Source: Ruditapes philippinarum (lineage: Eukaryota). Taken from it: a stretch of 64,000 nt of DNA. The translations under genes were made by a program, and so were the position numbers. How positions within the stretch are numbered: position 1 is the first letter of the stretch; the number at the start of each line of letters is the position of its first letter. The DNA lies in assembly GCF_026571515.1 (NCBI RefSeq), contig NW_026859515.1, forward strand, positions 1-64,000, read 5' to 3'. The notes below the pieces were generated by a model. It was not told where the DNA came from, made no database searches, and saw only the letters and a list, made by a program, of their open reading frames with translations. Positions 1 to 54,366 of this stretch are shown here, piece by piece.

Positions 1-228
1 TTTTGTTAGCTCACACTGTTTATTTACTTCATGAAAATTCACAGACAAACATCCGAACATACTATCACAAAGAGCAACACATTTGTTGATGGAACTATCA
101 TTAAAACTAGATATGGGATTCCCATTACTTTCATTGCTGGCGTACATTTCATAAAGAAAGGATTTTGTTAATCCAGCAATAATTTGAAAGAAGTTGAAAT
201 ACAGAAAAAAATGTTTAAGTGTCTTCAT
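1..228 (-). CDS. PAN/F-type lectin copy F, coding exon 1 (signal peptide + PAN/Apple), partial; runs off the window start
   Basis: ATG at 228, open for 76 codons: MKTLKHFFLYFNFFQIIAGLTKSFLYEMYASNESNGNPISSFNDSSINKCVALCDSMFGCLSVNFHEVNKQCELT; near-identical to exon 1 of copies B and E. Confidence 0.85.
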   Translation of the reverse strand, partial: MKTLKHFFLYFNFFQIIAGLTKSFLYEMYASNESNGNPISSFNDSSINKCVALCDSMFGCLSVNFHEVNKQCELTK

Positions 229-705
229 TTTTTGTGAAATATGAAATACACAAATCTTAATTTCCAACTCTAAATATAAAATTTAGCTTCGCAAATGACA
301 ATAGATGATTGTTAATGGCTAATGTTTGATATTTCAACAAACCCCTTCTTTCAAATTAATCCGAAGCGCATATGCTGTCGGTACCCGTGTTTTAAAGGAA
401 TGAATAATAAATCAAAATTTGCACAAAGAATACCCTGCAGATCAATCTTACCGTAGCTTAAATTTACATGAAAAGAATACCGTAAGTAGTTCTAACCTTA
501 AATCACCTTAATTTCAAGTTATCCGTTAAATCATTCAGAATTATATATGAGACTAATGCAAAGCTTTTAAAAAATTATTTACGGCCTCAAATATTTAGAT
601 TAGAGCAATGGCTTATCATGCCAGAGAACCCCAAATCACTATAGGCACAAAATGGTTTTCAATTTATTTGCAATTTTTAAATATTGATTGACTGCGTTCG
701 ATATA

Positions 706-3126
706 CAGTAAACTCCAACTGTATCGATATCGCTTGTAATGATATATCGGTTATATCGATACGTTTGTCTTGGTCCCTGCCAACTTCCATTATAACCTAA
801 CGGAAGCATCCTCGCATATATCGATATCGCATGTATCGATATTTCGGATATATCGATGTGGATTTTCAACCCCAACGCACATATTTTACCTCTTAAAACG
901 ATAATTTGCTGCACAAGTTTGTTGTGGAAGAGCGGTCTCGGTCCGCTTGTTTTAATGCATAAATATCTGCTCGATTAAATACAATGACGCGGAACATGTT
1001 CTGTGCGTACGTAACTACCGTTTTGTTCTCAATACAGGTGAATTCATCTCAAAAAATAAAAGCATGGTTTTGTCCTTTTATTGTTTCCTTTTAATAACAA
1101 TTTTCGTTGTAAATAAGTTATACATGTACATGTAGCTAAAACAGTGAACATGTCAGAAAAACGAAAAAGAAAAATTTTGGATATTGAAACTAAATATAAA
1201 TTTATTCAAGAGATTAATCTTGGTAAACGTAAAAAACAGGACATTGCAAACGATTTTGGAATTAAACAAAACACATTAAGTTCAATCTGGAAAAATAAAG
1301 ATTCTGTCATCAATGCATACGAGACTACGTCGTTCAGCCCAGCCCGTAAACGAATGCGTCATGCCAGTAATAGAGACATTGAAATGGCGCTGTTTGAGTG
1401 GTATAAGACTGTACGATCCCAAAATTTGCCTATTGATGGACCTATGCTTACACGAAAGGCTAATTCTCTGGTATGTGAGCTGGGCATGGAAAATTTTCAG
1501 GCAACAAACGGATTTATTGAAAGATTCAAAAATCGTCATGGCATATCGAGCAAAACATTATCCGGTGAAGGTGCTTCCGTCGATAATTCACAAACTGAAA
1601 ATTGGATGCAGTCAAAACTTACAAGTTTGATCAAGGACTATGAACCAAAAAATGTCTACAATATCGATGAAGCTGGCGTTTTTTATAAAATGACCCCAAA
1701 TAAAACACTAGAGGTAAAAGGAACAAAATGTTTTGGAGGCAAACAAAGCAAGGACAGAATCACAGTGCTTATCGGCGCAAATATGGACGGTTCTGATAAA
1801 CTTAAACTTTTGATAATCGGAAAATTCAAAAATCCTAGATGTTTTAAAAATGTTAAAAGTTTGCCGGTAGATTACGAAGCTAATCGTCGTGCTTTGATGA
1901 ACTCAGAAATATTTATCAGTTGGGTGAAAAAACTTGACAAACGTATGACACGTGAGAAAAGATCTATTCTATTGTTTGTTGATAATTGCCCGGCCCATCC
2001 GAAAATCGAGGGATTAAAAGCTGTAAAACTGTTGTTTTTCCCACCTAACACTACATCTAAGTTACAGCCCTGTGATCAAGGGATTATCTTTTCATTCAAA
2101 AGGCATTACAGGTCACGTGTCCTTGACCATATTATTTCATGTCTAGACAAACATATCGATAAACAGATTAACATTCTAAAAGCCATACAATGGTTTTATG
2201 CGGCATGGAAAGATGTAACACCGACGTGTATCCAGAATTGTTTTAGAAAGGCTGGATTTATGAATCAAGCACAGCATGAAATTAATGCGACCCCGCAGGG
2301 CATGTTTCCGATTCGTCTGACACAGACGAGTTCGAGGACGATGACATTCCGCTGGCTGAATTGGCATCGAAATGGAATCGCCTTAGAGTATTCAGTGACA
2401 TAGACAAAAACATTTCTTTTGATGAGTACATAAATGCCGATGAGAATGTTGTCTCCGTTGAGCAGAAGTCCGATAGCGATATAATAGCGGAGGTAAAGCA
2501 AAAATTGAAACCCGCTGAAACCCTGTCGCAGAGTGACGAAGAGAGTGACTCTGAGACTGTTGATGACCCCCCACCCACCATGAATGAGTTTCTTAATGCT
2601 ATAGACACTTGCAGACGCTTTGTTCTTTCTAAGTCTGATTCGTGTGATTCTGTTTTCGGATGTTTACATGAACTTGAGAAATTTTCAGTTGAAATAGGGA
2701 AAGCCAAAAAGCAGACAAAATTAACTGTTTTTTCCGACAGTGAATGTCTTTGTACATGAACAAAACTTAAACAAGATTTACCCATGAGTGTAAATAGTTA
2801 AAAAAGCAATTTAATTTTGACGTTTTTTTTCCAGTGTATAAATTTAAGCCAATGTAAGGTTACCAGTACCTGTGTACATATTACTTTCGGTTTATGTCAG
2901 TTTTGTGTTTATTTTGATGTGCAACTGATTTTTTATGCATTCAACATTGATATGCATAAAAAGAATAAAGTTTTGTCGTAAGTACATGATTGTCACATGT
3001 CTAGTATATAATGCTACTGCTTATACATGTTGAACGATGCAGTGCACCGTCAGTAAGCTACACACCGTACAGAAATTCGGTTGTAACGATATTCGGATAT
3101 ATCGATATAGTTTTGTATGTCCCCTG
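706..3126 (+). mobile_element. Tigger/pogo-family DNA transposon, right TIR missing
   Basis: Begins TA|CAGTAAACTCC with repeated ATCGATAT subterminal motifs at both ends; absent at the paralogous empty sites (~27260, ~40787); contains a transposase. Confidence 0.92.
1150..2403 (+). CDS. Tigger/pogo transposase (CENP-B-type HTH + DDE_1, DD30D); acidic C-terminus frameshifted and continuing to 2759
   Basis: ATG at 1150. Motifs ATNGFIERFKNRHGI, YNIDEAG, FVDNCPAH, FFPPNTTSKLQPCDQGII, with 30 residues between the last two Asp. The acidic tail (DSSDTDEFEDDDIPL...FDEYINADE...KQTKLT) is in another frame, 2286-2759. Confidence 0.92.
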   Translation: MSEKRKRKILDIETKYKFIQEINLGKRKKQDIANDFGIKQNTLSSIWKNKDSVINAYETTSFSPARKRMRHASNRDIEMALFEWYKTVRSQNLPIDGPMLTRKANSLVCELGMENFQATNGFIERFKNRHGISSKTLSGEGASVDNSQTENWMQSKLTSLIKDYEPKNVYNIDEAGVFYKMTPNKTLEVKGTKCFGGKQSKDRITVLIGANMDGSDKLKLLIIGKFKNPRCFKNVKSLPVDYEANRRALMNSEIFISWVKKLDKRMTREKRSILLFVDNCPAHPKIEGLKAVKLLFFPPNTTSKLQPCDQGIIFSFKRHYRSRVLDHIISCLDKHIDKQINILKAIQWFYAAWKDVTPTCIQNCFRKAGFMNQAQHEINATPQGMFPIRLTQTSSRTMTFRWLNWHRNGIALEYSVT

Positions 3127-3229
3127 AATATTTAAATAAACAAATACACTTGTGATGATTTAAACATATTTGATTACATGTGCTTTACATAAGTACATGA
3201 CTGTTGAACAATGATTAAACTTTACTTTG

Positions 3230-7436: not shown

Positions 7437-7660
7437 TTAAGGTGAATAAACGTAGACCTCACATAACGTCATCATTTCTGTAGATTCATGCTTGATTTTT
7501 AGAAACTTTCCGAAGATTGTATTTGTACAATCGATTGTTATGCTAAAAGGTTCCTTGTCTATAGCAGGACCAAAGTATGACCCACATTTTGTTCCTGCAT
7601 CATTTATGACATCATCACGACTGTTAGCAACAGTCACAGTGTAATTTGTCTGTATTTCAA
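7437..7660 (-). CDS. PAN/F-type lectin copy A, exon 3 (C-terminal half of the F-type lectin domain)
   Basis: TTTCAG| acceptor, 224 nt, phase 1: FEIQTNYTVTV...KCG...IDC...GKFLKI...LCEVYVYSP*. Confidence 0.8.
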
Positions 7661-7883
7661 CTGAAACATATTAATGATTATATTATATTGCTTGTATGAT
7701 TTAAATCAATCTTTCTTAATATATATTAAAACAATTACAAAATCATCTTTTTGTTTTAACTTTTTTGTTGACTCTCTTGCTGTTGGTTGATTTTCTTTAA
7801 ATGTTTACGACTTTGAACGTGTTACTTTGAAATTAAATCATTAAACAAACATTTGAAAAGTTAAAGACTATTAGGATGTAACA

Positions 7884-8386: not shown

Positions 8387-8602
8387 AACAGTAGTCTGTC
8401 CGTAACTTCATTTTGACTGACTTCACAGGACCCGAAGTTCCAAACTTAACAGCCCAGTAAGAGAAACCAGATGCAGTGTGGGCACAGTCGTGGATGCCTT
8501 CTACCTTTCCATCTATAGCCTTGTCTACTATCATATTAACAACACCTTCATACAAATATGTAGAAGACTGCCATGCTTCAGCTCCTTGTAAAAAAATTAT
8601 TC
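8387..8602 (-). CDS. PAN/F-type lectin copy A, exon 2 (N-terminal half of the F-type lectin domain)
   Basis: CACAG| acceptor, |GTATGA donor, 216 nt, phase 1-1. AWQSST...KAIDG...CAHT...WAV...RTDYC matches the fucolectin consensus. Confidence 0.8.
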
Positions 8603-9490
8603 CTGTGAAAACAACAACAAAAACAACACTTTTAGATTTTTAGATAGATTCTATGTAATATTATTTATAGAGTATACCTTATGTTTCTATTGACGAATCG
8701 CCATTTTTTTGGTGAAAATATATAAAAGAAAATGAAGAGGAATGTTTGGTTGAAAGAAGTTTAAAGGTTTTACTGTCCGATTTGTGATCAATTTTGTTGA
8801 AAATATCGGCTTTAATCCCCTTCATTTTTACTTGGCATGAAGTCAAAAACTTAGGTTAATTAATTGCCACAATTCTTTGTTGATCTTTGTATTAATTTTT
8901 TATACAACGTTTTGAGAAATGAACCAGTTGATTAAATTTTCTGAAAAATTCGTATTGTCGTAGTTTAAAGTTTCGGAAAAAAACTAAACAAATATTTTCT
9001 TTATCGGTCGTAGTTGACAGTTTGAAATATGTTACTTCTCATTGCATTGGCTTAAGCGTTAACTTTTAAATGTACTTAAAACTCTTGAAATGTCACATGT
9101 ATGCACTTTCACAAAAAGAAATATTTTACATTGTGCCTATAATAATATTTTGAAAATTACTGAGACATGTATCAAAAAGCATAAATAGTTCAATAAAACC
9201 GATCAAGAGAGTTCGACTACAATTAAAGTTATACATGCATATGATACGAAATGTGGAGACAAAAATGACAACTCCCAACTCTAAAAAGATATATTTTTTT
9301 ATCAAAACGAACTTATTTCCTAATTTCCAAAAGTAAACAAACGGATAGATTGAAAATATCAGATGCATTTACGACGATGCAATTCAACAACTCATACAAC
9401 GATGCGATTTGCTCAAATGCAAAACAGTCTCCCTTTAGGTAGACGCATCATTTAATGTTAGTGTTGTATGTTTTGTTTTAGTGACAAGTA

Positions 9491-10803
9491 CGAGGGGAAG
9501 TCAGAAAATGTCCGGACTTTTGACTCGTTTTCGAAAACCATTCAACATTTAAAAACATCTTTCTACTCTTTTTCAAAATATTCTCCACCTACGTCTACGC
9601 ACTTTTGCCATCTTCGTGGGAGCTTTTGTATTCGCGCTGTGAACCATGACGTAGACCTTTGTTTTATGTACTGTGTAACAGCAGATATCAAAGCCGCCAT
9701 TGTCTTTTATTTCTTTCCAGCAAGCAATTTTTTCAGTTCTGGAAACAAATAAAAGTCACAGGGGTCGAAGTCTGGGCTATAAGGATGACAACTATTGCTA
9801 TTTGTAAGAGTTGATAACCTCCACTGTACCTGCGGCGGTATGGGAGGGGGCGTTATCGTGATGAAGGAGGACATTTTTCTGTGCTAATCTGGGACGCATT
9901 TGCTTCAGCTTTTCTCTGAGATTTTTCAGAATTACTTCAGAATAGTACTTTATTGTGACAGTTTGACCTTTTTGCATGAAATGACTAAGTATCATTCCTC
10001 GTGAATCCCAAAAGGCAACAAGCATTACTTTGCCAGCCGAAGGAGACAGCTTATACTTTTGAGGAGGTGGGGAACAGCTCGTTTCCACTGCTTTCACTGA
10101 GCTTTTGTCTCAGGTTCGGAATATGGAACCCACATCTTATCTCCAGTGATAATGCGGTTCAAAGACTTATCTCCTTCACGATTAAAACGACTTAAATGTT
10201 ATTTTGCATTGGTTACTCTGGTTTCCTTTTGATCTGCGGACAGCTGTCTAGGCACCCACCTGGCACGTACCTTGCTCATGCCTATGTGTTCGTGTAAAAT
10301 CTTTTGTGCCGATGCCTTACCGATGCTAAACTTGTTGGCTACCTCCTCCAAAGTTACTCGACGATTTTTGTTGACAAAAGCTTTAACATTTGCTACCATT
10401 GTTGGGGTCACCGCCTCAGCTGGCCGCCCAGTCCTAGGTCTGACACAAACACTTGTTCTGCCTTCACAGAACTGAGAAACCCAGTTGTAGAAGGTTGAAC
10501 GTGATACACATTTATCAGAAAATCTTTTTTAAAGCCTCTGAAAGATGTGGCAGGGATTTTCACCCTCTGCAACCAGAAACTTTTTTACAGAGCGTTGTTC
10601 CTCTAACAAAGAGTCCATAATAGACGAAACACCTATCATATATCAGAGGGCAAAATACTGTGTATACACAACTATCATTGAAAATAAACTAATCACGTTA
10701 TTGGCGAATGAATGTAGTTTTCACCAATATATAGTGTGTGTATATAGCTGCACGTGGAAAGAGAGGAGCAAGAAAAGTCCAGATATTTTCTGACCGTCCC
10801 TCG
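9491..10803 (-). mobile_element. Mariner (Tc1/mariner) transposon, full length, pseudogenised, in intron 1 of copy A
   Basis: TA-flanked ~30-bp TIRs (CGAGGGGAAGTCAGAAAATGTCCGGACTTT / AAAGTCCAGATATTTTCTGACCGTCCCTCG). Transposase relic with WVPRQL, GKVMLVAFWD, HDNAPSH and PYSPDFDPCDFYLF; contains stops and frameshifts. Confidence 0.95.
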
Positions 10804-11343
10804 TATATTATCAATACTATTTTATCTCAAATGAGATGTCCAGTAAAATATACTATTGTATATTATTAACTAGTAAGAGACAACATGAGCACGTCTTAAT
10901 ATTCCAAGATTTAATACACATGTGATGTTACATATAGCATGCTGTATAGGCGGAGCTTATCAGTAACTAAAGTCTGTATCAAGAATTTTGAATATAGAAA
11001 AGTTAGCATGGCTACACATGGAATTACACAGTTGCATAGTCTTTTATTTGTTTACTGAGAAATAAATATTGTCTATCCATTTGAAAAAAGTTTTGCATCA
11101 GAGAAAAAAATTAAAGTAGCTCCTGACTTTAAGCCAGTGTATGTAAATGTTTTTATATACTTTTATTTTTATTGACGACTCGCAAAATAAAAAGTGTCAT
11201 TCCGCAGTAAATCATATGTCTTATCCATATTCATATATCATATAAAACTAGGCTACTTTGCAGACGAATAACTCAGGAGATTAGTACTGCAAAGCGCTGT
11301 TTTTCTTCCGGCAAAAGGCACCATCGCTGAAGTCATTGCCTTT

Positions 11344-11896
11344 TACTAGCGGCTCGAGCACCCCGAAACTGTTCCTTTTCGTCTCTGACACATTTTAGGG
11401 TCACTCACTTGGGTTCAGTCAGGACATCGGCAGCCTACTTTATACAAATTTTATCGTGCTGTCTTGAACGTAATCCCGAGCTGAACAAAGAATGCGAACT
11501 TTTTGTCTTACACGTTTGCAGTTGATTTTGAATCATCTGCAGATGCTCTGGGTCTTCTGAACGACGTTTATTACGGGGGCGTAGGACAAATTTTACTTGC
11601 ACCGGTGTAAACGGCAAATAATCCTGTCCGTTATACAAGAAAGGATTATCATAAAGACGTCTTAACCGTACTAGCGGCTCACGCACTCTTGCATCCTTCC
11701 TCGTCGTCTCAGACCATTTTCTTTGGCTAAAGTCAGGACATCGGCAGCTTACCTAAAACAGACCAACTCATGCCGCCTTAAACGTAACCTCATTCTGTAA
11801 AAAGCACGCGAACTTTTCGTCTTACATGTTGCAGTGGATCTTTAAACATATGCGGATGCCCTGTGCCTTCACAAAGACTTGCACGTACCGAGGGGG
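11344..11896. repeat. Diverged ~325-bp tandem duplication in intron 1 (also in copy B ~25213-25765; single fused unit in copy D)
   Basis: TACTAGCGGCTC...AGTCAGGACATCGGCAGC...GTCTTACA..TTGCAGT occurs at ~11345 and again at ~11670. Confidence 0.6.
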
Positions 11897-12586
11897 AAAG
11901 AGAGAACAGAGAAAAACAAATTTATATCTATAAGCAACGATGGTCCACACCATCATAAACCACCAGGGTACATATGAAAACAGTTATAACATTATATAAG
12001 ATTACGTTACTTATCATAGATGATCTTAACACGAGTAATATCCATTTTCTGAGGAGTTTTTTTCGACATAAAAGTTTACGGACGGACTATAAACTATTAA
12101 TGATATAGAATGACACATAAATAAACATTTGATCAGTTATTACGAAAGTTCTGAGTACTTTCCTCGAATCTTTCCTATTGTACGTTCAAGTGATATTTTG
12201 TGTGATTTTTTAAAATTTATTCTCTTTTAAAATGAATGTTTTATATGCAATATAAGACTCGCAGAAAACTATTAAATTGAAAAAAAAATATCACTATTTC
12301 ATTTTACTTTTATAAAGAATGCAGTAAAGTTTAATTTTATCCCTTTATCCAAGATTGCACGAATTGCTTGTTTTTAGACACAAATAGTATTATTAACTTT
12401 TTAAACATTATTATTTTGAATAAAACATGTTCAGTTTATTTTTTATTTGTGTATATGTTGCATTTAATGGCAATGGATTATCAAACACTACAGGGAACAT
12501 AAAGAGTAGCATCCCTACTATCCTACCCTAATTTTATCAATGGTGTTCCCTGAACCACAAACCTAACGCGAAAATAAATCTCTAAA

Positions 12587-12897
12587 CAAAGTTTCTCCGA
12601 AAGAAAATTTTCCATCCGTTGGAAATTTTCCATCCGTATTCCTGACGTTGTATTATCTAATGGATAATAATCTGTTAGCTCACACTGTATCTTTACTTCA
12701 TGAAAATTTGCAGACAGACATCCAAACATACTATCACAAAGAGCAACACATTTGTTTATGGAACTATCATGAAAGCTAGAGATGGGATTCCCATTACTTT
12801 CATTGCTGGCGTACATTTCATAAACAAAGGATTTTGTTAATCCAGCAATGACTTGAAAGAAGTTGAAAGACAGAAAAAAGTGTACAAGTATCTTCAT
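12587..12897 (-). pseudogene. PAN/F-type lectin copy A, exon 1 (signal peptide + PAN); frameshifted, splice donor lost
   Basis: 311 nt versus 301 nt in intact copies because of a local duplication (AAATTTTCCATCCGT at 12605 and 12623); donor G|GTAAG has become G|TTTAG. Confidence 0.8.
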
Positions 12898-16797: not shown

Positions 16798-19703
16798 CCC
16801 TGTACGAAATTTTGGCACGGATTCTGGGCGGAATTGGCACGGAATTGACACGGAATCAGTGATTTCTGGGCGGACCAGGAACGGAAACGCAAATTCCGTG
16901 TCATTCTGTCTCACAAGAAAAATATTTTGTTCACTTTTCTGGGCGGAAAACTAGAAAAATTCCGGCTGGAATTTTATTTGGAGCAGAATTTATACTTAAA
17001 CATTTCTTCTTGGACAGAATTTTCAACTTTGAAATTTTCTTGGGAAGGAATGGTCTTCACTATGGGCGGAATTCTATACTTAAATATTTTTCTTGAACAG
17101 AATTTCACATATAAGATGTCTAAATCATAATTGTTAACTCTTGTTTTTGCACTTGCAGACAATGTAATTTTACCAACTGTACTTATTATTTTTGTTGAAG
17201 CATGATACTTGACCAATAATTACAGGTGTATTTTAGAATAAATAGGGTTATTTTTTAGACATTAAAATATGCCTAAACAATGTTTTTAAATATTGTGGCA
17301 TATGATATATTGTCAGACTAATTTAGCAAATATTTTTTGTACTGAAAAACAACTGTAATAATCTTAGTGTAGAACTTGAAAACATTCACCTCCAAAATGC
17401 TTAGGTTTATAAAAAGCAACATTGAAATAAGAATGCTGTTTAAATTGGAATATCAGGACAGCCACAGGACAAGATAGTGTGCTTGCCATTTTTAACCCTA
17501 AGAAATCATGATTTTGTTATAAAAAATAAATAAAAACAAAACAAAAACATTGCATGAAATAATCTCATATAGTATGCCCTTTTAATCTATATAGAATTGA
17601 TCAGCCAATATGCCCAATAATTGCTTTCATTTAGGTAAATAAATACTACAATATATATCCACTGAGATTTGACACTACACAGATCAGAGCTCTGATAAAA
17701 CTCAACTGACCAGCAGTTTCCCACCATCTTGAATTCTTTGCATGACTAATTTACTCCACTGGTCATTCCAACAGATCAGGCTGTTCCATTGAATTATTTT
17801 GGGGAGAGATAACATTATAAATTTCATATGCAGAATTTGTCTAGGACATTGCAATTTTTTTTTGTTCAGAAATTTGTAATGATTTTTAAATTCTATATAT
17901 ATATATCTATTTGTTACTTGAATTTTTGTTACATTCAATGAATGGAGGTTGAGATGATGAGTAAATTAACCCTGTTTTACATAATGATTGACCTGTCCAT
18001 GCAGTTATACAGTTGTGAATTTTGAATTCTAAGATATCTGGGTCAGCAAAAAGAGTGCAAATAACAGAAGATGTACTTGATATTTTAACAATTTTTGAGA
18101 TATACTTTTGTTTAAGATCTCAAAGTGTTTTAGTATTGGTATGATAAATAAGTGTGAAAACATGGGACAAGGAGATGAACAACATAATCAGGTAATTGTA
18201 AACCTTTAGTTACATTAATGCTGAAACAAGTTGTATATCAAACTATCAATGGTAGCAAACTAAAATTTGTAACAAGAGGTCAATGTTGTTTTTATATTTT
18301 CAACTTCATACATTTGTTTTTTTCTGATAATTGTTTTAAATCTTTATTACATGTTTAATGGCTGTAAAATATAAATTATTCAATGATTCTATATAATGAT
18401 TGTGTGTATTGTATAAATTAATAGCATGTAGTAGATCTTTTTCATTTCCTGGAAATTAAACAAATTAGGTCAATTTGATTAAATAGGAATAAATGGTACA
18501 AATTCAGAAGTTTTGTACAGCTGAACAGGGTCATCATAATCATTTATTATTTTACATGTATGTGTTGTGTTTCCAATGGAACAATCTAAAATTACATTTT
18601 ACACTCATATTTTCAGACTGGGAGTTAAGTGCTGACTGTGAGATGCAAGGTGTTTCAATAAAGATGTGCAGTATTAATCCTGAATAGGTATATTTTTAAA
18701 TCTCAATACTTTACTATTCAACATCTTCCTTGAAAAAATACATAACCAGTAATAAATAGTGTCACAAATAAAGCAGTTAATTAATTCTTATACAGAGCAA
18801 TTCTTAAACACTTGTGCACTGAAATAAGATACTGCGTAAGCTTTAGTATTTTTGAATATGCATAAGCACTGTTAATATTTAATACTGTTGAAACATAAAA
18901 TTTGATATTATCAAAAATATGAAATATAACTGCATATATTTATGCAATCAAACATAATTCATTACTACATTTTTGTTTAATTAATTATTAATTTTATTAT
19001 TAAAGGTTAGCACAACCACAAGAAGTTCTTGGAAACACAGGCAGTGGACTTAAAACAGACATCAGTTAAAGAAATAGTAATTTAAATAATCAGAAACATT
19101 TGAAACAAATTTTTGATTGAAACACTCTCAGCAAAAAAATTGCAAAAAAACAAAGTGTTGGATTCTAAGAAAACCAGTACCTACCAAAACCTTCAGGTAG
19201 AAAAAAACTGTTTGTGTTATAGTGAATGTATGGTATTCTATTCTGTATTTGGACTAAAGGATATGTATTAAATTTTGTGAAAGAAAATTTAATGTGATAC
19301 ATTACTGATAATTTTATCCCAAAAAAATGTGATCATGTTAAACTCATAAAAATTCCGCCCCCATGAATTCTGTCCCAGAATTCCGCCCAGAATTTTGTTT
19401 GACAATTCCGTTCCAAAATTCCGTTCCGAAATTCCGCCCAGAGATTCCGCTTCAAAATTCCGCCCAGAGATTCCGCTTCAAAATTCCGCCCCAAGATTCC
19501 GCTTCAAAATTCCGCCCCAACTCATTTGCATATTTCGTCCCAATTCCGCCCAGAATCCGTCCCGTTTCCGCCTGGAATCCGGCCGGAATCCGTGCCAAAA
19601 GCAAATGGTTTAACACTTGTATATTTGGGGGAGAATTTAAATTTCTGGGCGGAATCTGCCATTGAATTCCGCCTCATTTCCGTGCAGAAAATTTCGTACA
19701 GGG
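16798..19703. mobile_element. Non-autonomous TIR DNA transposon (CCCTG...CAGGG termini, subterminal repeats; CACTA/EnSpm-like architecture)
   Basis: TIR CCCTGTACGAAATTTT / AAAATTTCGTACAGGG; many GGCGGAAT/ATTCCGCC subterminal motifs; absent at the paralogous sites ~6203 and ~44277; no transposase ORF. Confidence 0.88.
19429..19518. repeat. Subterminal 26-bp minisatellite (AAATTCCGCCCAGAGATTCCGCTTCA)x3.5 within the TIR element
   Basis: Tandem units are directly visible. Confidence 0.85.
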
Positions 19704-21177: not shown

Positions 21178-21401
21178 TTAAGGTGTATAAACGTAGACCT
21201 CACATAACGCCATCATTTCTGTAGATTCATGCTTGATTTTTAGAAACTTTCCGAAGATTGTATTTGTACAATCGATTGTTATGCTAAAAGGTTCCTTGTC
21301 TATAGCAGGACCAAAGTATGATCCACATTTTGTTCCTGCATCATTTATGACATCATCACGACTGTTAGCAACGGTCACTGTGTAATTTGTCTGTCTTTCA
21401 A
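21178..21401 (-). CDS. PAN/F-type lectin copy B (intact, ~246 aa), exon 3
   Basis: TTTCAG| acceptor, 224 nt: FERQTNYTVTV...LCEVYVYTP*. Confidence 0.9.
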
Positions 21402-32700: not shown

Positions 32701-33339
32701 AGCACTGTCCTATTATTTCTGACTAAACTCTTATTGATTGCCTATTGATTCTTCATGCCCACAAATGACAAACAAGCATCATTGTCATTTTTTTATTTTA
32801 CCCTCACCACCCACCTAGTGATTTCCCCTTTTTTAAAGGCTGTTTAACCTAGCCCAAAATAGATATATTTTCCCTTAAAATGCTAATTTTTCCCCTAAAA
32901 CCCCTGTGTCGGTGGCACGAAATACCCAAATATACACAAATACACCCAAATATACCCAAATATATCAATTTTCATATTTGTTTGTATAAAATACAAATTA
33001 TAATGAGAAAATGAATTTATATTTAAAAAATAGTATGACTAAGCCGACTATAACTTTCATTCATTCCGTTGAAATGGGCAGTTCAGATGCTGTAAGAAAA
33101 TAAACTTGCGATATTGGCTTATCTATGTTCATTAATGAACGGCCCTTGATGAATATATTTTTGCAATATAAGATAAAGATATGACAATATTTGTTGTCTA
33201 CATTAAAATTTTAGTGTATAATTTCATTCAACTTTCATACAAATGACCATCGTATTATTTAAAAAAATAATAATACATGTATATCTTTAAAGGAGTATAC
33301 TGTTGATTCTATTTGGGTATATTTTGGTTTAAAACATAA

Positions 33340-34010
33340 TGGTAGGAAAATATATATTTGGGTTTATTACCCTTCCAGATTTTTTCCGCCTTTTTGATTT
33401 GACATTGATCACCCGAAAGAAATTGATATAACCGAGCCAGACGAGTAATATACACACTAAATTTCCCAGTTGGGTACCCAACGTTGTAAACGACATGCGC
33501 TGAGGTGATGCGCGTACGGTTCGATTTTAAGCGGTGTAAATTTCGATTTACAAGCACTTTTTAACTGTCAAATGATAAATAATTACCAAAGTAGAGTAAT
33601 AATAAAAATTCCCATCAGTATTAAAAACAAATATTACCTTGTGAAAGCTTAATATTAATTACAAAAAAGTGCTTTCAATAGACTACTCCTTTTCTCTTGT
33701 TCACATTCGTTAGGTACGGGGAAAATACGTCATGTATTTATGTGACGTCATGTTGTGATGAAGAGGTACCCTAAAGGGAATCTTATCTCAACGTTTCATT
33801 TGAAACAGCAATGCTTTTTTAAAAAATCGTCTAAACTCGGCAGGGGAAGGGTAATAAAATTATTTTTTTGGTTTTGGAGTGATATATGTGGATATATTAC
33901 CTGCCAAGATAAAATGTCACCCTTGCCTAACGGCTCGGGTGATACAAAATTTTGCCATGTAATATATCCACATATATCACTCCAAAACCAAAATAACATA
34001 TACTGCTTGA
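33340..34010. mobile_element. Non-autonomous element with a subterminal inverted repeat and a long terminal palindrome
   Basis: TTTATTACCCTTCC (33364) / GGAAGGGTAATAAA (33845); perfect 35-bp arms at 33866-33900 and 33959-33993. Confidence 0.6.
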
Positions 34011-36639
34011 TCAATCGTAGTGAAAGTGTATTTACCCAAATACACCCAAAATATTGCCCAAATATACTAAAAATGAATGTTTATACTAAAAAGGTGCTGT
34101 TTTAATTTTGAATAACAATATACAGCATGTAATAATAAATATCATAATAAAATGATCAGAACATTTTCTACTTTAGCGGTAATAATGTGGAGTAATATGA
34201 AGAAATATTATTATCATAAATTTTCACTCATTACATGTTGTATAGTGTACACGTATATATATACATTGCATATATAGATAGATAAACATTATTCATACAA
34301 AGGTACATCAGTACACAGTAATAATACAATCAGCAGTTACATAACATCAATGGCATGATATAGCATGGTAAACATACAATAGGTCTATTAAAAAGTCAAT
34401 ACTTATTCATCATGCCATATCTAGTCTATTATATATGTTATACATATAAAATGTTTATGATAACATCAATGACATGATATAAGCATGATATATAATTATG
34501 AAATAGTTATATTACAAAGTCGATACTTATTCATCATAACTTATCTAATATATAATATATATGACACAGTGAGAGGACAAGGTTAACGTTGATACAATGC
34601 ACTGTCTCTTTTATGAAAACTTTTGCAAACAAATATTGCTAAATTTTTAACAATCCAAATATTTTCAGAATCAAATAGTTCTCTAAATTTAATTATTTTA
34701 GGTCTCTTCCAAAATACACACACATATATATATATATACACACACTAAGAGAGTATTATTAGATAACTTTGAAGATGAAACCTCTAAATTGATATTTTCA
34801 GGGAAATAAAAGGTCATTACTCCAATATTCACTTGGAAAGGCTGGTACATGTAGCTAGAAAATGGTATAAGATTAAAGAAAGACAAGAAGATTATCACAA
34901 ACAACAGGTACTTGTATAATATTTGATGTATATTTCACAAATCAAACTGTATTCCAAAAAATATTCATGAAAACATATACCTTTTTACCAGTGTTACCAC
35001 GGGCCAGATTACCAGACCCATTTCCAGTGGCAAATAATGCCAAATGTGCTTATTTTTTCCAAGTTTAGAAAAAAAAAATCATAATCTAGTCAAATTCCCG
35101 TTATCAAAGCTGACAATTTTTCTTCTTTCCATTTCAATCCAATATGGTACCAGACAGATGATGTTAAAAAAACCATTTCATTGTCAATTTTTATGTACTT
35201 TTTATGCTTTGCATGATATACAATTTGATGGATTAACTTTGTACATGGTTCTGAATATTTTTCCCAATCAAGATGCAAAATTCCCTAACCTGTGCTAGGA
35301 ATTTTTCCCAATATGTCTAGGAAAAGGCTATAAACTGAAAATGTTTAGTTTGCATTCCTAATCTACATACTGGAATAGTCCAAGACTTGTTCATACATAG
35401 TGCCGCCTAAAATAAAAGAGTGTCAGTGCATGCTCACAGTTTATTATAGTGTTAGTTTAGAACATACTTTAAAATTTCTGTCAATTGCAATAAAATACTG
35501 CCTATGACAGTCTTTTTCCTTTGCTGAAAATGATCACTTACATAAATTATCATAGTATAGTTTTTTAAGGTCGTACAAATCAAATATACAGGGCATTACA
35601 AGGAACTTCAAAATTTACAATACAGTTTTGTTGCCTTGAACAAGACCTCAATATGTATGCAAAATTTACAATACAGTTCATCCTTATGAACATTGTTTAA
35701 AGTTTCAAGATTGAAACAAATGAAAATATTCAATAGCAAAGCACAGCTGTGAAGTGATTGTTTCCCCACCAAATGATTTAAATATGTATTAAAATGTTTC
35801 CTTACCCTTTGATTGGCCTTTTTTCTGCTTAGTGTGTCTAATTGCTAAATTGACAGGCTGTTTTTAAAGTTTGAAGGGATTATCTTTGAAACATTCATTT
35901 TGGTTATTAAACTTACCATAGTTTACATTTAGTTGGAGCCAATAAATGATTATACCTTTAAATTGTATGCAGTCTAAACAAAAATAATTGTATACTGTCT
36001 GAACAAATGGAACAGAAAAAATATCACAAAATGGAATTTAGTATAACTATGAGTATTTATTTAAGAAATTGTATTTCAAATATATTAAAATAGTGTTATT
36101 GAAAGTCATTTTGTATGACAGACACACAAAGGTGGAAATGTTTCACTGTCAAGCAAATGAAGATTAGCATCACAGTCTGTGGGAATCTCCAGTTTCCAGA
36201 TGTAGTGATCATAATTGCATAGGCACCATGAACACTTGGAACTAGTTGGACTATTTTAGAGGGGTAGTCTGAGTTAGCACTTCAGTTGAATCCCATGTCA
36301 ATTGTAAAGGGCCAGTCATGAACATTGTGTTGAAGGACAATGTTAAATCTAGTTGTTTTGGCTTCAAACAAAACCATGACACTTACCCAGCAGTGATAAA
36401 TTAAATCAATTGTGATATTTTGACCGATTTCCCCAAAAGTTTCCATGTATTGAAGCTCCTGGGATTTGTGTAACATATGACTGCACATTCCAAAATTTAT
36501 TAAAATATTGTGTAATGTTTAGCAATGTTGTGTAAATACATTCAGAGCTAGCATACCTCATAAGTTATAACATGTATCTTAGCTTGCCTGGTTTAATGAA
36601 AAGTAATAAACCTGAGAATTGAAACTAGAATAAATTGTT

Positions 36640-37150
36640 GTTATTAGTCCCCTTCTGTTTTCAGCAAGAGGGAACTAAAGGCTGACCCCTTTCTGTATGT
36701 CAATGAAATCTGAATTCTGATATTACTCAAAAGGTACAAAAGCAAAGTCCAGAGAAATACTGGAAAAAAATGATGGAATTTGATCAAAATTTTACAAAGC
36801 GAAAACATTCAAGTGAAAGGAAGTGTATTTTCAAAGAACCATAATTTTTCCTAGGATAATTTTACAATTATCATCTCTTATTATACATCAATATTAAAAA
36901 TATTGGTTGTCTGGAGTAAATCTTTTCAATTATATCTCACCCAAGTAGAGACTAGTGAGCAAAAGTGCTGTGTCAAATAACCAAAATTCTACATTACTTA
37001 GTTTTTGAATTATCTCCATTTTTATATTATTTCATGATACTTGTTCAGAGAAAGGATTAAAATATTAAAGGAATTTGATCGAAACTTCATACAGTGAAAG
37101 AGATTAGCATGAGAAGTGCAGTAAACACTTTAAAGCTATCATAAGTTCTA
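36640..37150. mobile_element. Degraded Helentron-associated (HINE/CvA-like) element
   Basis: TTATTAGTCCCC...GGGAACT hairpin end like that at 58946; internal repeated core GAATTTGATC(A/G)AAA. Confidence 0.4.
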
Positions 37151-38077
37151 ATGACATGGCCACATTCATATAATGTGATGCAAATATATTGACTATTTGA
37201 CTGTTTTCTTGATACTGATACAGAAAATTTAATATATTTATATCACAATTGATCAATTTTTCATAGCTTTGTCTCCCTTTATTATGTCATGTATTAAAAT
37301 AGTCGAGCTTACAGTTTCGAGCTCTTATTTCACTAGTTGCTCTCGTCAAAAAGGGCCAATAACGGTTTGTGATGGACCTTCACGCACATGTAACGTAAAT
37401 ATTATATTTGAACATGTGTGTCATAGAATAATTGTATCAACTACTGTTCATTTACTGAATTGTGCACTTTATATTTATCAACCGGCAACACCCTTCACTC
37501 GTTGAATTATCTGCACCCGAAATAGTAAAAAATGATTATTTTGATCCTTCAAGTACGTCCCAACTGCAGTGCATTCAGCACTTTGATTGTATTTGAAGTG
37601 ATAAAGTTCTTTTAAAATATAAACAAATTAAAGTGTGAAATAAAAAAGGTTATCAATATTTCTGAGTAGATTACAGAGTCTATTGGACTCGTCCTCCGGT
37701 TCAAAACCTATATTAGTCCCGGCTAGCGCAACGTCCAATATAGGAACTCGTACAATAGAATACAGTATTGTACTCAACAATGTATTATAACATCAAAATA
37801 TAGCATCTTGTTTTTACTTGGAACATTGTTTAAGGTTTTTTTCCTCTATAAGAAGGTAAAAATGTGTTTTATAATATCTTGATTATGGATTTACAACAGA
37901 TTGGAAAGTAGTTATCGCATGAAGAAGCGTAAAATATAAAATAAATAGTTTGTCATTAAAGTAGCAAAATATAAACAAAATGCTTAATCACTGTTTGTAT
38001 CCATAAAGCTAAATAAAAGGTTGGAAACCGAAAGAGTGATGTTTTGCACAGTAAGTTTTCAACTTCATTTAAAATAT

Positions 38078-38301
38078 TTAAGGAGTATTAACATAGACCT
38101 CACATAACACCATACTTGATTTAGATTCGTGCTTGATTTTTAGAAACTTTCCGAAGATTGTATTTGTACACTCGATTGTTATGCTAAAGGGCGTCTTGTT
38201 GATAGCAGGACCAAAGTATGATCCACATTTTGTTCCCACATCATTTATGACATCATCACGACTGCCAGCAACGGTCACTGTGTAATTTGTCACGGTGTTA
38301 T
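38078..38301 (-). CDS. PAN/F-type lectin copy C, exon 3
   Basis: TTTCAG| acceptor, 224 nt: YNTVTNYTVTV...LCEVYVNTP*. Confidence 0.82.
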
Positions 38302-38916: not shown

Positions 38917-39129
38917 AACAGCAGTCTCTTCGTGAATTTATTTGTACTGATTTTACAGGACCCGGAGTTCCAAACTCAACAGCCCAGTATGAGTAACTAG
39001 ATTTAGTGTGGGCACAGTTGTGTATCGATTGGACATTTCCGTCTAAAGCCTTTTCTGCGATCAGATGAACACCAACATCGACAAATGTAGAGGACTGCCA
39101 TGCTTCAGCTCCTTGTAAAAGATTTATTC
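38917..39129 (-). CDS. PAN/F-type lectin copy C, exon 2
   Basis: CACAG|...|GTAAGA, 213 nt: GINLLQGAEAWQSST...ALDG...CAHT...RRDCC. Confidence 0.82.
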
Positions 39130-39809: not shown

Positions 39810-39960
39810 NNNNNNNNNNNNNNNNNNNNNNNNNNNNNNNNNNNNNNNNNNNNNNNNNNNNNNNNNNNNNNNNNNNNNNNNNNNNNNNNNNNNNNNNNNN
39901 NNNNNNNNNNNNNNNNNNNNNNNNNNNNNNNNNNNNNNNNNNNNNNNNNNNNNNNNNNNN
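39810..39960. other. Assembly gap (N run) in intron 1 of copy C
   Basis: 151 N characters. Confidence 0.99.
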
Positions 39961-40018: not shown

Positions 40019-40323
40019 CAAAGTTTCTCCGAAAGAAAATTTTCCATCCGTTGTTAGGTAATCCTGACGTTGTATTATCTAACGGATAAGGATAATAATC
40101 TGTGAGCTCACACTGTTTATTTACTTCATGAAAATTTACAGACAGACATCCGAACATACTATCACAAAGAGCAACACATTTGTTGATGGAACTATCATTA
40201 AAGCTAGATAGGGGATTCCCATTACTTTCATTGCTGGCATTCATTTCATAAACAAAGGATTGTTAATCCAGCAATAATTTGAAAAATGTTGAAATACAGA
40301 AAAAAATGTTTAAGTATCTTCAT
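40019..40323 (-). pseudogene. PAN/F-type lectin copy C, exon 1, with a 2-nt deletion just after the signal peptide (possibly a consensus error)
   Basis: 305 nt = 301 + 6 (YYPYPL duplication) - 2 (plus strand GGATTGTT versus GGATTTTGTT at ~40260); donor GTAAGA intact. Confidence 0.72.
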
Positions 40324-45652: not shown

Positions 45653-45698
<46 letters not shown>

Positions 45699-45706: not shown

Positions 45707-45727
45707 AATTATAACAATAATGATATA

Positions 45728-46480: not shown

Positions 46481-46704
46481 TTAAGGTGTATTAACGTAGA
46501 CCTCACATAACGCCATCATTTCTGTAGATTCATGCTTGATTTTTAGAAACTTTCCGAAGATTGTATTTGTACAATTGATTGTTATGCTAAAAGGTTCCTT
46601 GTCTATAGCAGGACCAAAGTATGATCCACATTTTGTTCCCGCATCATTTATGACATCATCACGACTGTAAGCAACGGTCACTGTGAAATTTGTATGTCTT
46701 TCAT
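46481..46704 (-). CDS. PAN/F-type lectin copy D, last exon
   Basis: TTTCAG| acceptor, 224 nt: YERHTNFTVTV...LCEVYVNTP*. Confidence 0.87.
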
Positions 46705-47472: not shown

Positions 47473-47688
47473 AACAACAGTCTCTTCGTAACATTATTTG
47501 TACTGATTTTACAGGACCCGGAGTTCCAAACTCAACAGCCCAGTATGAGAAACCATTATAAGTGTGGGCACAGTTGTGTATGCCTTCTACCTTTCCGTCT
47601 ATAGCCTTGTCTGCGATCATATGCTTTTCACCTCCATCTAAATATGTAGTGGACTGCCATGCTTCAGCTCCTTGTAAAAGATTTATTC
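47473..47688 (-). CDS. PAN/F-type lectin copy D, F-lectin exon
   Basis: TTTACAG|...|GTAAGA, 216 nt; QSTT, AIDG, CAHT, RRDCC. Confidence 0.87.
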
Positions 47689-50020: not shown

Positions 50021-50266
50021 CAAAATTCCTCCGAAAATAGATTTTACATCCGTTGTTAGGTATTCCTGGTATTGTATTATCTAACGGATAATAATCTGTG
50101 AGCTCACACTGTTTATTTACTTCATGGAAATTCACAGACAGACATCCGAACATACTGTCACAAAGAGCAACACATTTGTTAATGAAACTATCATTAAAGC
50201 TAGATATGGGATTCCCATTACTTTCATAACTGGCGTACATTTCATAAACAATGGATTTTGTTAATT
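50021..50266 (-). CDS. Copy D PAN exon, probably used as an internal phase 1-1 exon (own ATG at 50320 is frameshifted)
   Basis: TTTCTTTCACATTTCTGCAG| acceptor at 50267, 246 nt open, |GTGAGG donor. The frame from ATG 50320 hits TAA at codon 20 owing to a 1-nt deletion. Confidence 0.68.
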
Positions 50267-53200
50267 CTGCAGAAATGTGAAAGAAATTAAAAGACAGGTA
50301 AAATGCTCTAGAATCTTCATTTTTGTGAAGGACACAAATCTAAATCTCCAAATCTAAATGAAAAATTTAGTTTTGGAAATGACCATTGAAGATTTTTAAT
50401 TGTTTAACAAATCGTTTCTTTCAAGAGAATGAGAAGCAAATATACTGCCGGTACTCGAATGAATACGAATGAATAATGAATAAAAAATTTGCATAAAGTA
50501 TTCCCGACAGATATACATTTAACAAGAGAAATATTGAAAAAAGGTGGCAAATTGTTTTTTATGTTATCTGATGTCGGTCGACCATAAAAGGTCACTTTGT
50601 TAATGTGTTATGTTTTATCTCGGTAAATCTAAAATTTGAGATTTTTACAAGAATATTTTTCAGGCGAATTCTGCCTGAGAGCGGTTTGATGATTGTAAAA
50701 TTAACAGGAAAGAACAGAATATTAAAACGATTCTCATTGGTCATTTTAAAATTACAAATTAAATCAGGGAATCTTATCGGTCATTCCAAAATAATTATAA
50801 TAATCTAAAGGATCTTTCTGAAACGTATACACGTCCGATTTGTAAAATAATCTTAAGAAGTATTAGAAACAAATGTTCTAGTTAAAATTCTCGGATATTT
50901 GAAATCTGTGAACATTCTCCCAATAAACAATTTAACAATTTATACGGCTTTAAAATTTTTTCTTTTTTTTCTCTGGTGAAAACATTATTTTTTATTAAAC
51001 ATAAGAATATACCAAGTTGAAAATGACATTTTATAAGTTTTGTCCAAACTAACGAGATGCCAATAACGCCCGCGATCCAGGAAAAACATATGCATACCGA
51101 AATACATCAATTGTCTGGTACATTTAGTAGATTATGTTTAGTGTTCATGATATACCGGTATCATTAATAATGATGATTGATGTAATCAATCGATTTTAAT
51201 TAAAAGAAATCGATAAATGTTTGCATATTGATTTAGCATAAATAGTGCGTACAGTGTATATGAATACGTATGTGTAAGGTACAGCGGTTACGGAAACACT
51301 ACAGTTCCATTTGGAAATATTTTTGCAGTGTTTCCTAAACCTAAAAATACGAAAAAAGAACAGCTTAAAATAACCTATGATAATAAAAGAAGTTTTATCT
51401 CTTCCGATTATCTTTTTTAAAGATTATTTAGTAAAATCATTCAGAATTATATATAAGACTAATGCAAAGCTTTTTAAAACCTGTTTACGACCACATATAT
51501 TTAGAATAGAAAAATACTTAATCAAAGTACTTCCGTTCAACATGTTATTTTCGATTTTGCTCACTACTGTGTTGGAGCACTATCTCATGATTTTTTTCGC
51601 TGATTTTTATATCTTTCATTTATGTTCATTTATAAATCGGTGTGAAGAGATGAATAAGATGTTTTAAAGTACATTTCGGCGGGTAAAAAGGGGATACTGA
51701 TTACTAGCGATTCCGTATTGAAGCGCCTCGTCCGAAATGTACTTAAATACGGTATTTCATGCGGGGCTCCAATACTTTTATGTCACATGTTTTGTTTTAC
51801 AGCTTATTGCCAATAGTAATCATGAGTGTCATAATAATTCTTTTCCTTCAATCGGCCGTTAACTGCCTAGAATGACGTTGACTTCCTGTGTGAATCCAAG
51901 AGAAAAACTGAGTATTCTTCCCCCTAACCAGTTGCTCAACCTGCTGATCGTTCAGCACGGCATTATTGTTGTGCTTGTGGTATTTTGGTTCTTTCTATTC
52001 GGCATCTTTCTTGTTGGGTGGTTCCAATATTCCTAAATTGAATACTGTTGAATCACCCTTAGGATATGTGGCCTGCTTTTTAAATTTGTCTTTTGACGTC
52101 ATATCTGTGATATGCAGGCTTCATAACCTCAGATCCCCTTTCAAATTTCCATCTTTTTTTTCCCGCCCATTGGTTTCTCGTTTCGGGCACATGCATTTTG
52201 TTACTTGGGGACCATATGCCGCTTTTCATGAAACGGCACTTACGTGTCACATTGAAGGTTCCATGATAATCGCTATATGAACACATCTACGGATGTTTCA
52301 AAATTATACCAGTTCATGTTAAATGTTGAATTCTGCTTAAGCCGGTGCTAGGGGGGCGTGGATGGTAGTTTGCATTTGACAGTACTGTCCATGAACAGAC
52401 TCAATCAAACCGAGCCTGCAACATTTTCAATTTTGCCGTGTTTGGCTTTCTTTAGGGATTCTTTTTTCTCTCTATCTTACAATACACCGTAAACTCTTTC
52501 CTCCCCCGATAGCCATCTTCGAAATTTGAAATATATAGAAATTTTGCCCCCAAAGATTTTCATCATTTATGTATTTTCACTTTTTGTATAAATGTATTCC
52601 ATTGATATTCATTTAAAACTGCATTTCATAAATATGTTGAAATATTTTTGCCGTCGGTCTAAAAACAGAGCGGTTAGCTCTTTTATTAACCCTTTTAAAA
52701 GCATTGTTGTAAATCATAACAAATACTGTCCAGAAATTATAATTTTAAAAAGAAATCAACACGGTAACACTTAAGTTTGTATGCAAATGAAGACTGTAAT
52801 TTGCTCATGAGTGTGTATTCATAATGTATTTTGTCTCATTATTACACATACATTTTATACATATATACAAATATTCACATAAAACTTACAGACGACGATT
52901 CTTTTTTATTAGAATTTCAAGAGGCATTATTTCAATAAGAAACTTATTCCAGACTAGTACATTAAGACATGATTCATAAAGTACAATTTTAACTTATATA
53001 AACAGTTAGGTAACTTGTTTAAACAGAATATCAAAAGTAAGGTCACCATCAAAAAATAAAAAAAACTGCCCTAAAAGGAAAATGTAAAATACTGAGAAGT
53101 GTAAATCGGAGCCCAAACGCGCGTATAGAAAACATTTTTAAAATTATCATCCGAGATTAGGTCCTGCATGAACTGATTAGCAGTGATTACCTAAACCTAT

Positions 53201-53394
53201 AGGTAAAATACATCATCATGTTTAAAGCGAAACATTAATTATTTACAAAGGAAATAAAAGACAAAGTTGCAGATTATTAATACAGATTTTGGCCCATTAA
53301 AGTATCATTTCAATTTTAATGAACAGAAATATTAATTGTTCATTTTTAGACATTCTTACAAATGCATTATTTCTGGTTTGAGTTTTATCAAGTC

Positions 53395-53685
53395 ATATCT
53401 ACATCGTTAGTAATTAAAAAAAATGTCTGGTTCTGCACATTTTGTTCTTTTTTATGTATTATTTGTAAAAAGTTACTATGTTTATAAACCTTTTAAATAA
53501 CCGGCGCTTTTGTAGAAGCGGTCTGGAAAATCACTTACCGACCGCCGAACAGATAAATAATGATTTGTTCGGCAAATGTATTAGATATGCAAAAAAAAAA
53601 AAACAACAAAGAAGTAATTTAATGCAGTTTTGAACTGTTTTAAAACCGACAACGCCAAAGTTACTTTCAGTTCGTAAATAGTAGG
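53395..53685. repeat. ~290-bp diverged direct repeat (partner ~55340-55655) flanking the exon E block
   Basis: CTACATCGTTAGT...TTCTGCA.ATTTTGTT...ACTTACCGACCGC...TGTTCGGCAAATGT...A-tract is shared by both. Confidence 0.7.
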
Positions 53686-54065
53686 TCATTCTCTTAAAAT
53701 GAATGTTTCATCAGCAATATATATATCGCATTCAACTATTAAATTGAAAAAAAGTAAATCTATTTCATTTTACTTTTATAAAGTATGCAGGCACGTTTAA
53801 TTCTATCCCGTCCGAATTGCTTGTCTTTCGTCACAAATAGTATTAAGTAATTTTTAAATATTATTAATTTCAGTATCTTTTGAATTTGTGTATATGTTGC
53901 ATTTAATGACATTGGATTATCAAACGATTCAGGGGACATAAAAAGTTACTGTAGCTCACAGTCACACGGATATGTAAAAAATCCTTACCTACCTACCTTT
54001 TTTTCAATCATGTCCTCTGTACCACAAACAAATTTTTTGACCTAATGCGAAAATAAATTTCTTAC

Positions 54066-54366
54066 CAAAGTTTCTCCGAAAATAAATTTTCCATCCGTTG
54101 TTTGGTATTCCTGACGTTGTATTATCTAACGGATAATAATCTGTTAGCTTGCATTGTTTATTTAATTCATGGAAATTCACAGACAGACATCCGAACATAC
54201 TGTCACAAAGAGCAACACATTTGTTGATGGAACTATCATTAAAGCTAGATATGGGATTCCCATTACTTTCATTGCTGGCGTACATTTCATAAACAAAGGA
54301 TTTTGTTAATCCAGCAATAATTTGAAAGAAGTTGAAAGACAGAAAAAAATGTTTAAGTATCTTCAT
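54066..54366 (-). CDS. Copy E exon 1 (signal peptide + PAN), intact, with no exons 2/3 of its own; candidate first coding exon of the D gene
   Basis: 301 nt open from the ATG to a |GTAAGA donor; no F-lectin exons seen between 50320 and 54066. Confidence 0.85.

Follow-up and report, generated by a model that had tools for sequence, protein, structure and literature searches.

A tandem cluster of three-exon genes, probably for secreted PAN and F-type lectin proteins, in the clam Ruditapes philippinarum

What is encoded by the repeated units that begin at the left edge of contig NW_026859515.1 of Ruditapes philippinarum (assembly GCF_026571515.1), and which of the units are intact? We analysed positions 1 to 64,000 of the contig; these 64,000 nucleotides are called the window. 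Comparison of the window with itself placed the repeated region between the left edge and about 55.5 kb. We conclude, with good but not full confidence, that this region is a tandem cluster of three-exon genes. These would encode a secreted protein of ~246 amino acids with two domains, a PAN module at the N-terminal side and a single F-type lectin domain after it. The anatomy of the cluster itself is very secure.

The minus strand carries six copies of exon 1 (U1 to U6, from left to right) and four exon-2/exon-3 pairs, located downstream of U2, U3, U4 and U5. The encoded order is a signal-like leader, the PAN domain and the F-type lectin domain. The exon-1 ATG codons are at positions 228, 12897, 26778, 40323, 50320 and 54366. 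Hence, successive copies are separated by 12669, 13881, 13545, 9997 and 4046 bp; an earlier note, made from the sequence alone, had given 12.7, 13.9, 13.5, 10.0 and 4.0 kb for six copies. The lengths and intron phases claimed there (301/213-216/224, phase 1) were also recovered. Exon 1 is 301 nucleotides in U3 and U6, exon 2 is 216, 216, 213 and 216 nucleotides in U2 to U5, exon 3 is 224 nucleotides in all four copies and both introns are in phase 1. All copies of exons 2 and 3 have AG acceptors, and all four copies of exon 2 have GT donors. A six-frame profile search of the window found the same 6+4+4 = 14 exons, all at E<=6e-23, including each of the four lectin exon pairs noted earlier. It found no further copy; the next match (E=0.044) was the out-of-frame tail of U2 exon 1. 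The array does run off the left edge, as had been proposed, with U1 cut at codon 76. All eight lectin exons are open. Conversely, three of the six first exons (U2, U4 and U5) are broken. An Rfam scan gave no matches, and a look by eye for a 5' untranslated exon or a TATA box gave nothing decisive either way. The exons, and one assembly gap among them, are as follows.

1 to 228, minus strand: U1 exon 1 (leader and PAN); open, cut by the window edge at codon 76.
7437 to 7660, minus strand: U2 exon 3, which encodes the second half of the lectin domain; Ile in place of the last triad Arg.
8387 to 8602, minus strand: U2 exon 2, which encodes the first half of the lectin domain.
12523 to 12897, minus strand: U2 exon 1, broken; 10-nucleotide duplication and donor loss.
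21178 to 21401, minus strand: U3 exon 3 (intact gene).
22200 to 22415, minus strand: U3 exon 2 (intact gene); DG calcium motif, His and first triad Arg.
26478 to 26778, minus strand: U3 exon 1 (intact gene); 301 nucleotides, signal-like leader and four-Cys PAN domain.
38078 to 38301, minus strand: U4 exon 3; Thr in place of the last triad Arg.
38917 to 39129, minus strand: U4 exon 2; 213 nucleotides.
39810 to 39960, no strand: assembly gap of 151 N in U4 intron 1.
40019 to 40323, minus strand: U4 exon 1, broken; 2-nucleotide deletion leading to a stop at codon 26.
46481 to 46704, minus strand: U5 exon 3; open, last triad Arg kept.
47473 to 47688, minus strand: U5 exon 2; open, adjacent Cys-Cys pair kept.
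50021 to 50320, minus strand: U5 exon 1, broken; 1-nucleotide deletion leading to a stop at codon 20.
54066 to 54366, minus strand: U6 exon 1, intact; no lectin exons of its own.

The first exon encodes the leader and the PAN module. In both exon-1 copies tested, PAN_1 (PF00024) scored above the Pfam cut-off of 21.4 (U3, 30.8 bits; U6, 29.1 bits). The four-Cys core of the domain comprises Cys 50, 54, 60 and 72. A homologue model has a helix-and-strand domain in this part, with a good predicted local distance difference test (pLDDT) score; in the fold searches, matches to the lectin domain took up the lists. The sequence match to the apple protein MIC4 was weak (E=0.007). The PAN exon is under purifying selection; its omega of 0.18-0.23 differs from 1 at a p of about 1e-4 or less. 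The leader has a basic start, a hydrophobic stretch at residues 7-17 and Gly at position 19, and five homologues have hydrophobic N-termini. It thus looks like a signal peptide, and the product is probably secreted.

Exons 2 and 3 encode the F-type lectin domain. The lectin half of U3, represented by database protein P0008, matched PF22633 at 30.1 bits (cut-off 27.8). Single lectin exons miss the Pfam cut-off because intron 2 splits the domain: exon 2 alone was below it in three of three cases and exon 3 alone gave no match in any of three. NCBIfam gave no match for the three lectin proteins. Among solved structures, P0001 (R. philippinarum LOC132734033) matched striped-bass FBP32 (E=5e-8) and eel agglutinin (E=1e-5). 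The fold was tested on models of homologues; P0001 is 85-92% identical to the best-matching exons of the window. For the models of P0001 (pLDDT 66.8) and P0003 (84.6) the top fold matches were 3cqo and 1k12, with Z scores of 18.8 and 18.4 and, at best, a root-mean-square deviation of 2.6 over 143 aligned residues. In these models, the fold of close homologues is the jelly roll of F-type lectins. The PAN/Apple and F-type lectin identity put forward in the earlier note is thus borne out by both Pfam families and by homologue models that match F-type lectins first.

In the available portions of one review (PMC5712786), the F-type family is defined by its fold, a His...R-x-D-x4-R/K motif and an h2DGx cation motif. 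The same portions supplied the eel-lectin residue roles used for alignment. In the register of eel agglutinin, P0001 has H52, R79, D81, R86, D38 and E147, together with both structural disulfides. The fucose motif, H-x(24-26)-R-x-D-x4-R/K, was checked for register against 1k12 through P0001. It is present in U3 and U5 and fails in U2 (Ile) and U4 (Thr). Intron 2 cuts the motif, leaving His and the first Arg in exon 2 and the last Arg in exon 3. The cation motif reads AIDG in U2, U3 and U5 and ALDG in U4, and LCE is found in all four copies; the x position is Lys in three of the four, not a small polar residue. Cysteines equivalent to the eel structural disulfides (Cys50-Cys146 and Cys108-Cys124) are present in every copy, and we infer that both bonds form. 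The adjacent pair (eel Cys82-Cys83) is kept in U4 and U5 and lost in U2 and U3. At the position of eel Asp64, U3 (22200-22415) and U2 (8387-8602) have Lys, and U4 and U5 have Glu. The Lys would remove a fold-clamping salt bridge in U2 and U3. U3 also has a ninth Cys, residue 172, which is left without a partner.

Searches for homologues yielded 4 and 11 proteins, and 10 of the 11 were NCBI proteins of R. philippinarum or Mercenaria mercenaria. All four homologues mapped onto the window break at the same exon junctions. P0008 (R. philippinarum LOC132756776) equals residues 124-246 of U3 exactly, spanning the exon 2/3 junction. It is without exon 1 and part of exon 2; hence, the record shows neither the leader of U3 nor its PAN domain. 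Venerid proteins with the same PAN and F-type architecture are LOC132756776, LOC132734033, LOC132727639 and LOC132748713 of R. philippinarum and LOC123559191, LOC123559199, LOC123535140 and LOC123530895 of M. mercenaria. Six venerid identifiers were looked up in the collection of papers searched, which mentions none of them, and the records carry no function. A mollusc 'fucolectin-like' Atlas cluster has 211 members (PF22633 in 91%, PAN_1 in 63%, score 0.96), most commonly from the phylum Mollusca. This cluster is automatic and comes without an alignment, so it speaks to the spread of the architecture and not to function. In a broad homologue search, both domains were spanned by 8 of the best 150 matches. 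The combination of PAN and F-type lectin domains is not new; it is already frequent among the mollusc proteins in sequence databases. One database protein, P0123, has a thioester-protein C-terminus (alpha-2-macroglobulin type) followed by PAN and F-type lectin domains. This is either a real fusion, tying the module to opsonisation, or a fusion of gene models.

Which copies could produce the complete protein? The spliced frame of U3 is 741 nucleotides and encodes 246 amino acids; database open reading frame (ORF) P0031 differs from U3 exon 1 at 2 of 116 residues. The rest of the U1 gene lies beyond the left edge. Database fragment P0157 matches the last 14 codons of U1 exactly and stays open beyond the donor position. 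Read-through of U2 exon 1 gives a 124-residue PAN-only ORF. The same lesion occurs in P0011, which differs from this read-through at 2 of 124 residues. An assembly error is unlikely to explain the U2 lesion, since it is found in this separate record. Rescue of U2 by another donor was considered and rejected; of 12 GT sites scanned, the sole in-phase open option creates a TGA at the junction. For U4, exon pairing crosses an assembly gap because the 151-N gap falls in intron 1. A downstream ATG (40244) would yield a leaderless ORF of 220 amino acids. The first four residues of this ORF and of P0001 are identical, hinting that the upstream lesion of U4 is common to another paralogue. Further damage in U5 exon 1 comprises G19E, at the likely cleavage site, and W92C, in the conserved GWK motif.

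The intact first exon of U6 can be joined to exons 2 and 3 of U5. This gives a 246-residue ORF with a 6377-nucleotide intron and skips the dead U5 exon 1. We infer that this splice is used. The exon-1 part of P0001 is closest to U6 (64/69 residues), compared with 59-62/69 for U3-U5 and 51/65 for U2, and its exon-2 part is closest to U5 (90%). This likeness modestly supports a pairing of U6-type and U5-type exons. However, P0001 also shares the leaderless start of U4 and so is a mosaic itself. The earlier note had called its copy B intact, and possibly D/E and F. Those letters are undefined there; as we map them, they would correspond to U3, U6 with U5, and U1, and the claim fits.

Could the cluster be an artefact of assembly? 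Haplotypes may have been falsely duplicated, especially U2/U3, or the frameshifts may be sequencing errors. The U2/U3 lectin region is mostly 92-100% identical per 100-bp interval, there is an N gap inside the array and the U4 and U5 deletions fall in short homopolymer runs. However, exon-1 copies are just 86-96% identical and U4 intron 2 barely aligns (51-59%). The promoter of U2 resembles that of U6 (88-96%), with less likeness to U3 further upstream (71-84%). Furthermore, the U2 lesion has its separate database record and U5 exon 1 has several independent damaging changes. We regard an artefact as highly improbable overall, though less so for U2/U3.

Independent divergence of the copies, with little exchange, does not describe the cluster, as the nearest relative shifts along each unit. 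Hence, their history is mixed with conversion and recombination. The body of U2 is nearest to U3, its promoter to U6 and the spacer farther upstream to U1. Synonymous differences between U3 and U5 amount to about 13/49 in exon 2 and 1/50 in exon 3 (p=0.0004), and the introns are 86-87% identical. Exon 3 therefore looks younger, and exon 2 older, than the introns, which suggests unequal crossing-over and short conversion tracts atop birth-and-death. A three-sequence breakpoint test gave 10/10000. The U3-U5 comparison is preferred because the poorly aligned introns of U4 weaken that test. Protein trees of exons 2 and 3 were poorly resolved (1/10 and 0/10 branches starred) and were dropped as evidence of recombination. 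The birth-and-death turnover proposed in the earlier note agrees with the intact and broken copies and with repeated duplication. Alone it is incomplete, since the copies are recombinant mosaics.

Differences between lectin copies are concentrated in five loops around the predicted sugar pocket. Variable columns number 28 of 41 in the loops and 19 of 104 elsewhere, a contrast reached by 0 of 20000 block shuffles. Loop limits were taken from the eel-lectin alignment, and were drawn after the alignment of the copies had been viewed. For U3 and U5 alone, 14 of 41 loop columns differ compared with 11 of 104 others (p=0.001). The substitution rate of the loops is ~3-fold higher than that of the framework, synonymous sites included. 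Because the synonymous sites of the loops vary too, we do not claim positive selection. On general population-genetic reasoning, high loop divergence at all sites would fit old variants escaping homogenisation.

Several points weigh against reading these genes as secreted, fucose-binding lectins with diversified loops. The mean hydropathy of the leader over 11 residues is 1.73, barely above the internal maximum of 1.69, and the leader is argued from hydropathy, homologues and the N-terminal helix of a homologue model only. Galactose-binding CBM32 modules scored Z 15-16 in the fold searches, just 2-3 lower than F-type lectins. The aromatics of the eel fucose-methyl pocket are not retained, with no clear equivalents of Phe45/Tyr46, and U3 has one Cys fewer in the adjacent pair; fucose specificity is therefore not assured. 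The His-Arg-Arg triad is kept in four of ten database homologues and lost in six. Between the U6 donor and U5 exon 2, eight other AG sites pass a crude acceptor filter. Four lectin copies give little statistical power. Under a shared rate, the loops had an omega of 2.0 (p=0.012), with 1.43 (p=0.32) for exon 2 alone. Positive selection was not upheld once the loops had their own rate; omega was then 0.83, which differed neither from 1 (p=0.64) nor from the framework value (p=0.35).

With omega for the loops no different from 1 under a free local rate, the cluster might be a mostly decaying, neutrally churning repeat. U3 would then be the one working gene, the remainder debris and the loop variability a result of relaxed constraint. 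The broken state of half of the first exons would be expected, and all four private changes in U4 exon 1 are non-synonymous. Triad loss in U2 and U4 need not mean decay, since it is common in homologues. Moreover, relaxed constraint leaves the raised loop rate at synonymous sites unexplained, and it sits poorly with eight open lectin exons and with purifying selection on the PAN exons. We consider decay unlikely and return to a working lectin family.

How might such a family act? By comparison with the structure of eel agglutinin, the proteins made from U3 and from U6+U5 would hold terminal fucose-like sugars through His-Arg-Arg, calcium would only stabilise the fold and the loops would tune the preference among larger glycans. 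A constant second contact may come from the PAN module, which is better conserved. Each product would be a secreted, disulfide-bonded glycoprotein, with binding and oligomer state as in the eel lectin. Unequal crossing-over would create and delete units of 10-14 kb and recombine promoters, PAN exons and lectin exons, gene conversion would even out some stretches and frameshifts would kill copies. The lectin exons of U5 may remain in use via the first exon of U6. By analogy, we lean towards a role in recognition of non-self glycans, on microbes, parasites or food particles, in mucus or haemolymph.

Alternatively, the product could be a mantle-secreted protein of the shell or mucus matrix, binding glycans for structure or particle sorting rather than defence. 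In another clam, Mya truncata, F-type lectins are reported from both mantle and shell matrix (PMC12221842 and PMC8902148, available parts), but there the work cited puts an immune role first. Fast turnover and loop-focused variability would suit a changing external target better. Hence, we do not expect a matrix role, though it merits mention. Gamete recognition, as by oyster sperm bindin, would involve the same anatomy. The F-type domains of bindin vary around the fucose pocket, are sometimes without the triad and recombine in a mid-domain intron, according to the accessible sections of PMC5712786. The clam cluster likewise has variable loops, copies with an incomplete triad and an intron that interrupts the R-x-D-x4-R segment. 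By contrast, those sections describe bindin as few single-copy genes with 1-5 tandem lectin domains, and leave PAN unmentioned. Here, each gene has one lectin domain and a PAN module, not a run of lectin repeats, and belongs to a multi-gene cluster, which sets bindin apart by description. We think a gamete role very unlikely and keep to glycan recognition.

A more speculative proposal, which we advance with considerable doubt, is that the cluster generates sugar-binding sites by combination. With the fucose motif itself split by intron 2, exchange of whole exons between paralogues would reassort the halves of the pocket on a conserved PAN adaptor, much as in bindin but between genes. Selection would keep old loop variants while the framework is homogenised, and first exons would be swappable. 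On this proposal, U6 would rescue the lectin exons of U5 and U2 would yield a secreted PAN-only product.

Mobile elements also lie in and next to the units. Three were delimited.

706 to 3126 (ends approximate), plus strand: Tigger/pogo-type DNA transposon (DDE_1 E=2e-45, HTH_Tnp_Tc5, CENP-B_N).
9489 to 10805, minus strand: mariner remnant in U2 intron 1, with 33-bp terminal inverted repeats.
23354 to 24672, minus strand: mariner remnant in U3 intron 1.

The Tigger/pogo-type element is ~480 bp upstream of the U1 ATG and splits homology that is contiguous in U3; its long ORF stops at an apparent frameshift. The two mariner copies occupy the same intron-1 site and are 95.1% identical (1253/1317). 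Hence, the U2/U3 duplication postdates the insertion. Intron 1 of U2 (11344-11883) and U3 (25277-25753) also contains a diverged internal duplication of ~200 bp (~70% identity). In the U2/U3 spacer, a 2.9-kb insertion (~16807-19700) is bounded by terminal inverted repeats, which are imperfect and rich in GC, and contains a tandem repeat of 13/26 bp; it is probably a non-autonomous DNA transposon. From the U3 upstream region to the U4 3' end (~30650-37590), ~7 kb is nearly unique in the window and no gene was identified in it; a 65-bp hairpin lies within, at 33863-33996. To the right of the cluster, a 127-residue fragment (56755-57138, plus strand) is like the C-terminal end of a reverse transcriptase of long interspersed element (LINE) type (zf-RVT, E=0.012, weak). 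A short ORF (60929-61147, within ~60900-61260, minus strand) resembles, by eye, a mariner helix-turn-helix remnant. The last coding stretch (63307-63999, minus strand) belongs to a Patched/NPC1-type membrane protein (TIGR00918, E=1e-27) and continues past the right edge. This gene flanks the cluster, ~9 kb upstream of U6.

The NCBI protein of this clam lectin locus is shortened, and the analysis both corrects the annotation and fills in what was missing. U3 and U6+U5 give two defined predicted proteins with the fucose triad, 14 of 41 loop positions apart, and the pair is suited to studying the diversification of specificity among F-type lectins. Copy number could serve as a marker in the farmed clam, provided that the role is immune. 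No general principle is altered, as bivalves can be expected to have tandem families of lectin genes that include pseudogenes. Among the top literature matches listed, supplements and most subscription papers aside, none concerned a PAN and F-type lectin gene in clams. A term search of the main text of two F-type lectin reviews found no mention of PAN as a partner domain; a domain survey cited there may list it. The available text of PMC13712769, PMC5549309, PMC3269628 and PMC8382680 added only a snail gene, in a resistance region, that combines PAN with a C-type lectin.

How does the cluster compare with known systems? Anguilla anguilla agglutinin (1k12) and striped bass FBP32 (3cqo) are the best matches in both sequence and fold. 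Shared features are the His-Arg-Arg triad, in U3 and U5, the DG calcium motif, both structural disulfide positions and variability of the complementarity-determining region (CDR) loops. Unlike the fish lectins, to which they are ~22-29% identical, the clam genes add an N-terminal PAN module. The His-to-Arg spacing is 25 residues in the clam; for the eel lectin it is 26 by alignment and 24 in the available part of the review (PMC5712786). CDR2 of the clam is shorter than that of the eel, without Phe45/Tyr46, and only U4 and U5 have the adjacent Cys pair. In the sections of PMC5712786 to hand, Pacific oyster sperm bindin resembles the clam family in that its F-type domains have diversified near the pocket and some of its forms have lost the triad. 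Bindin, as described there, relies on intragenic tandem repeats and alternative splicing in few genes, whereas the clam has separate one-domain genes, each with a PAN module.

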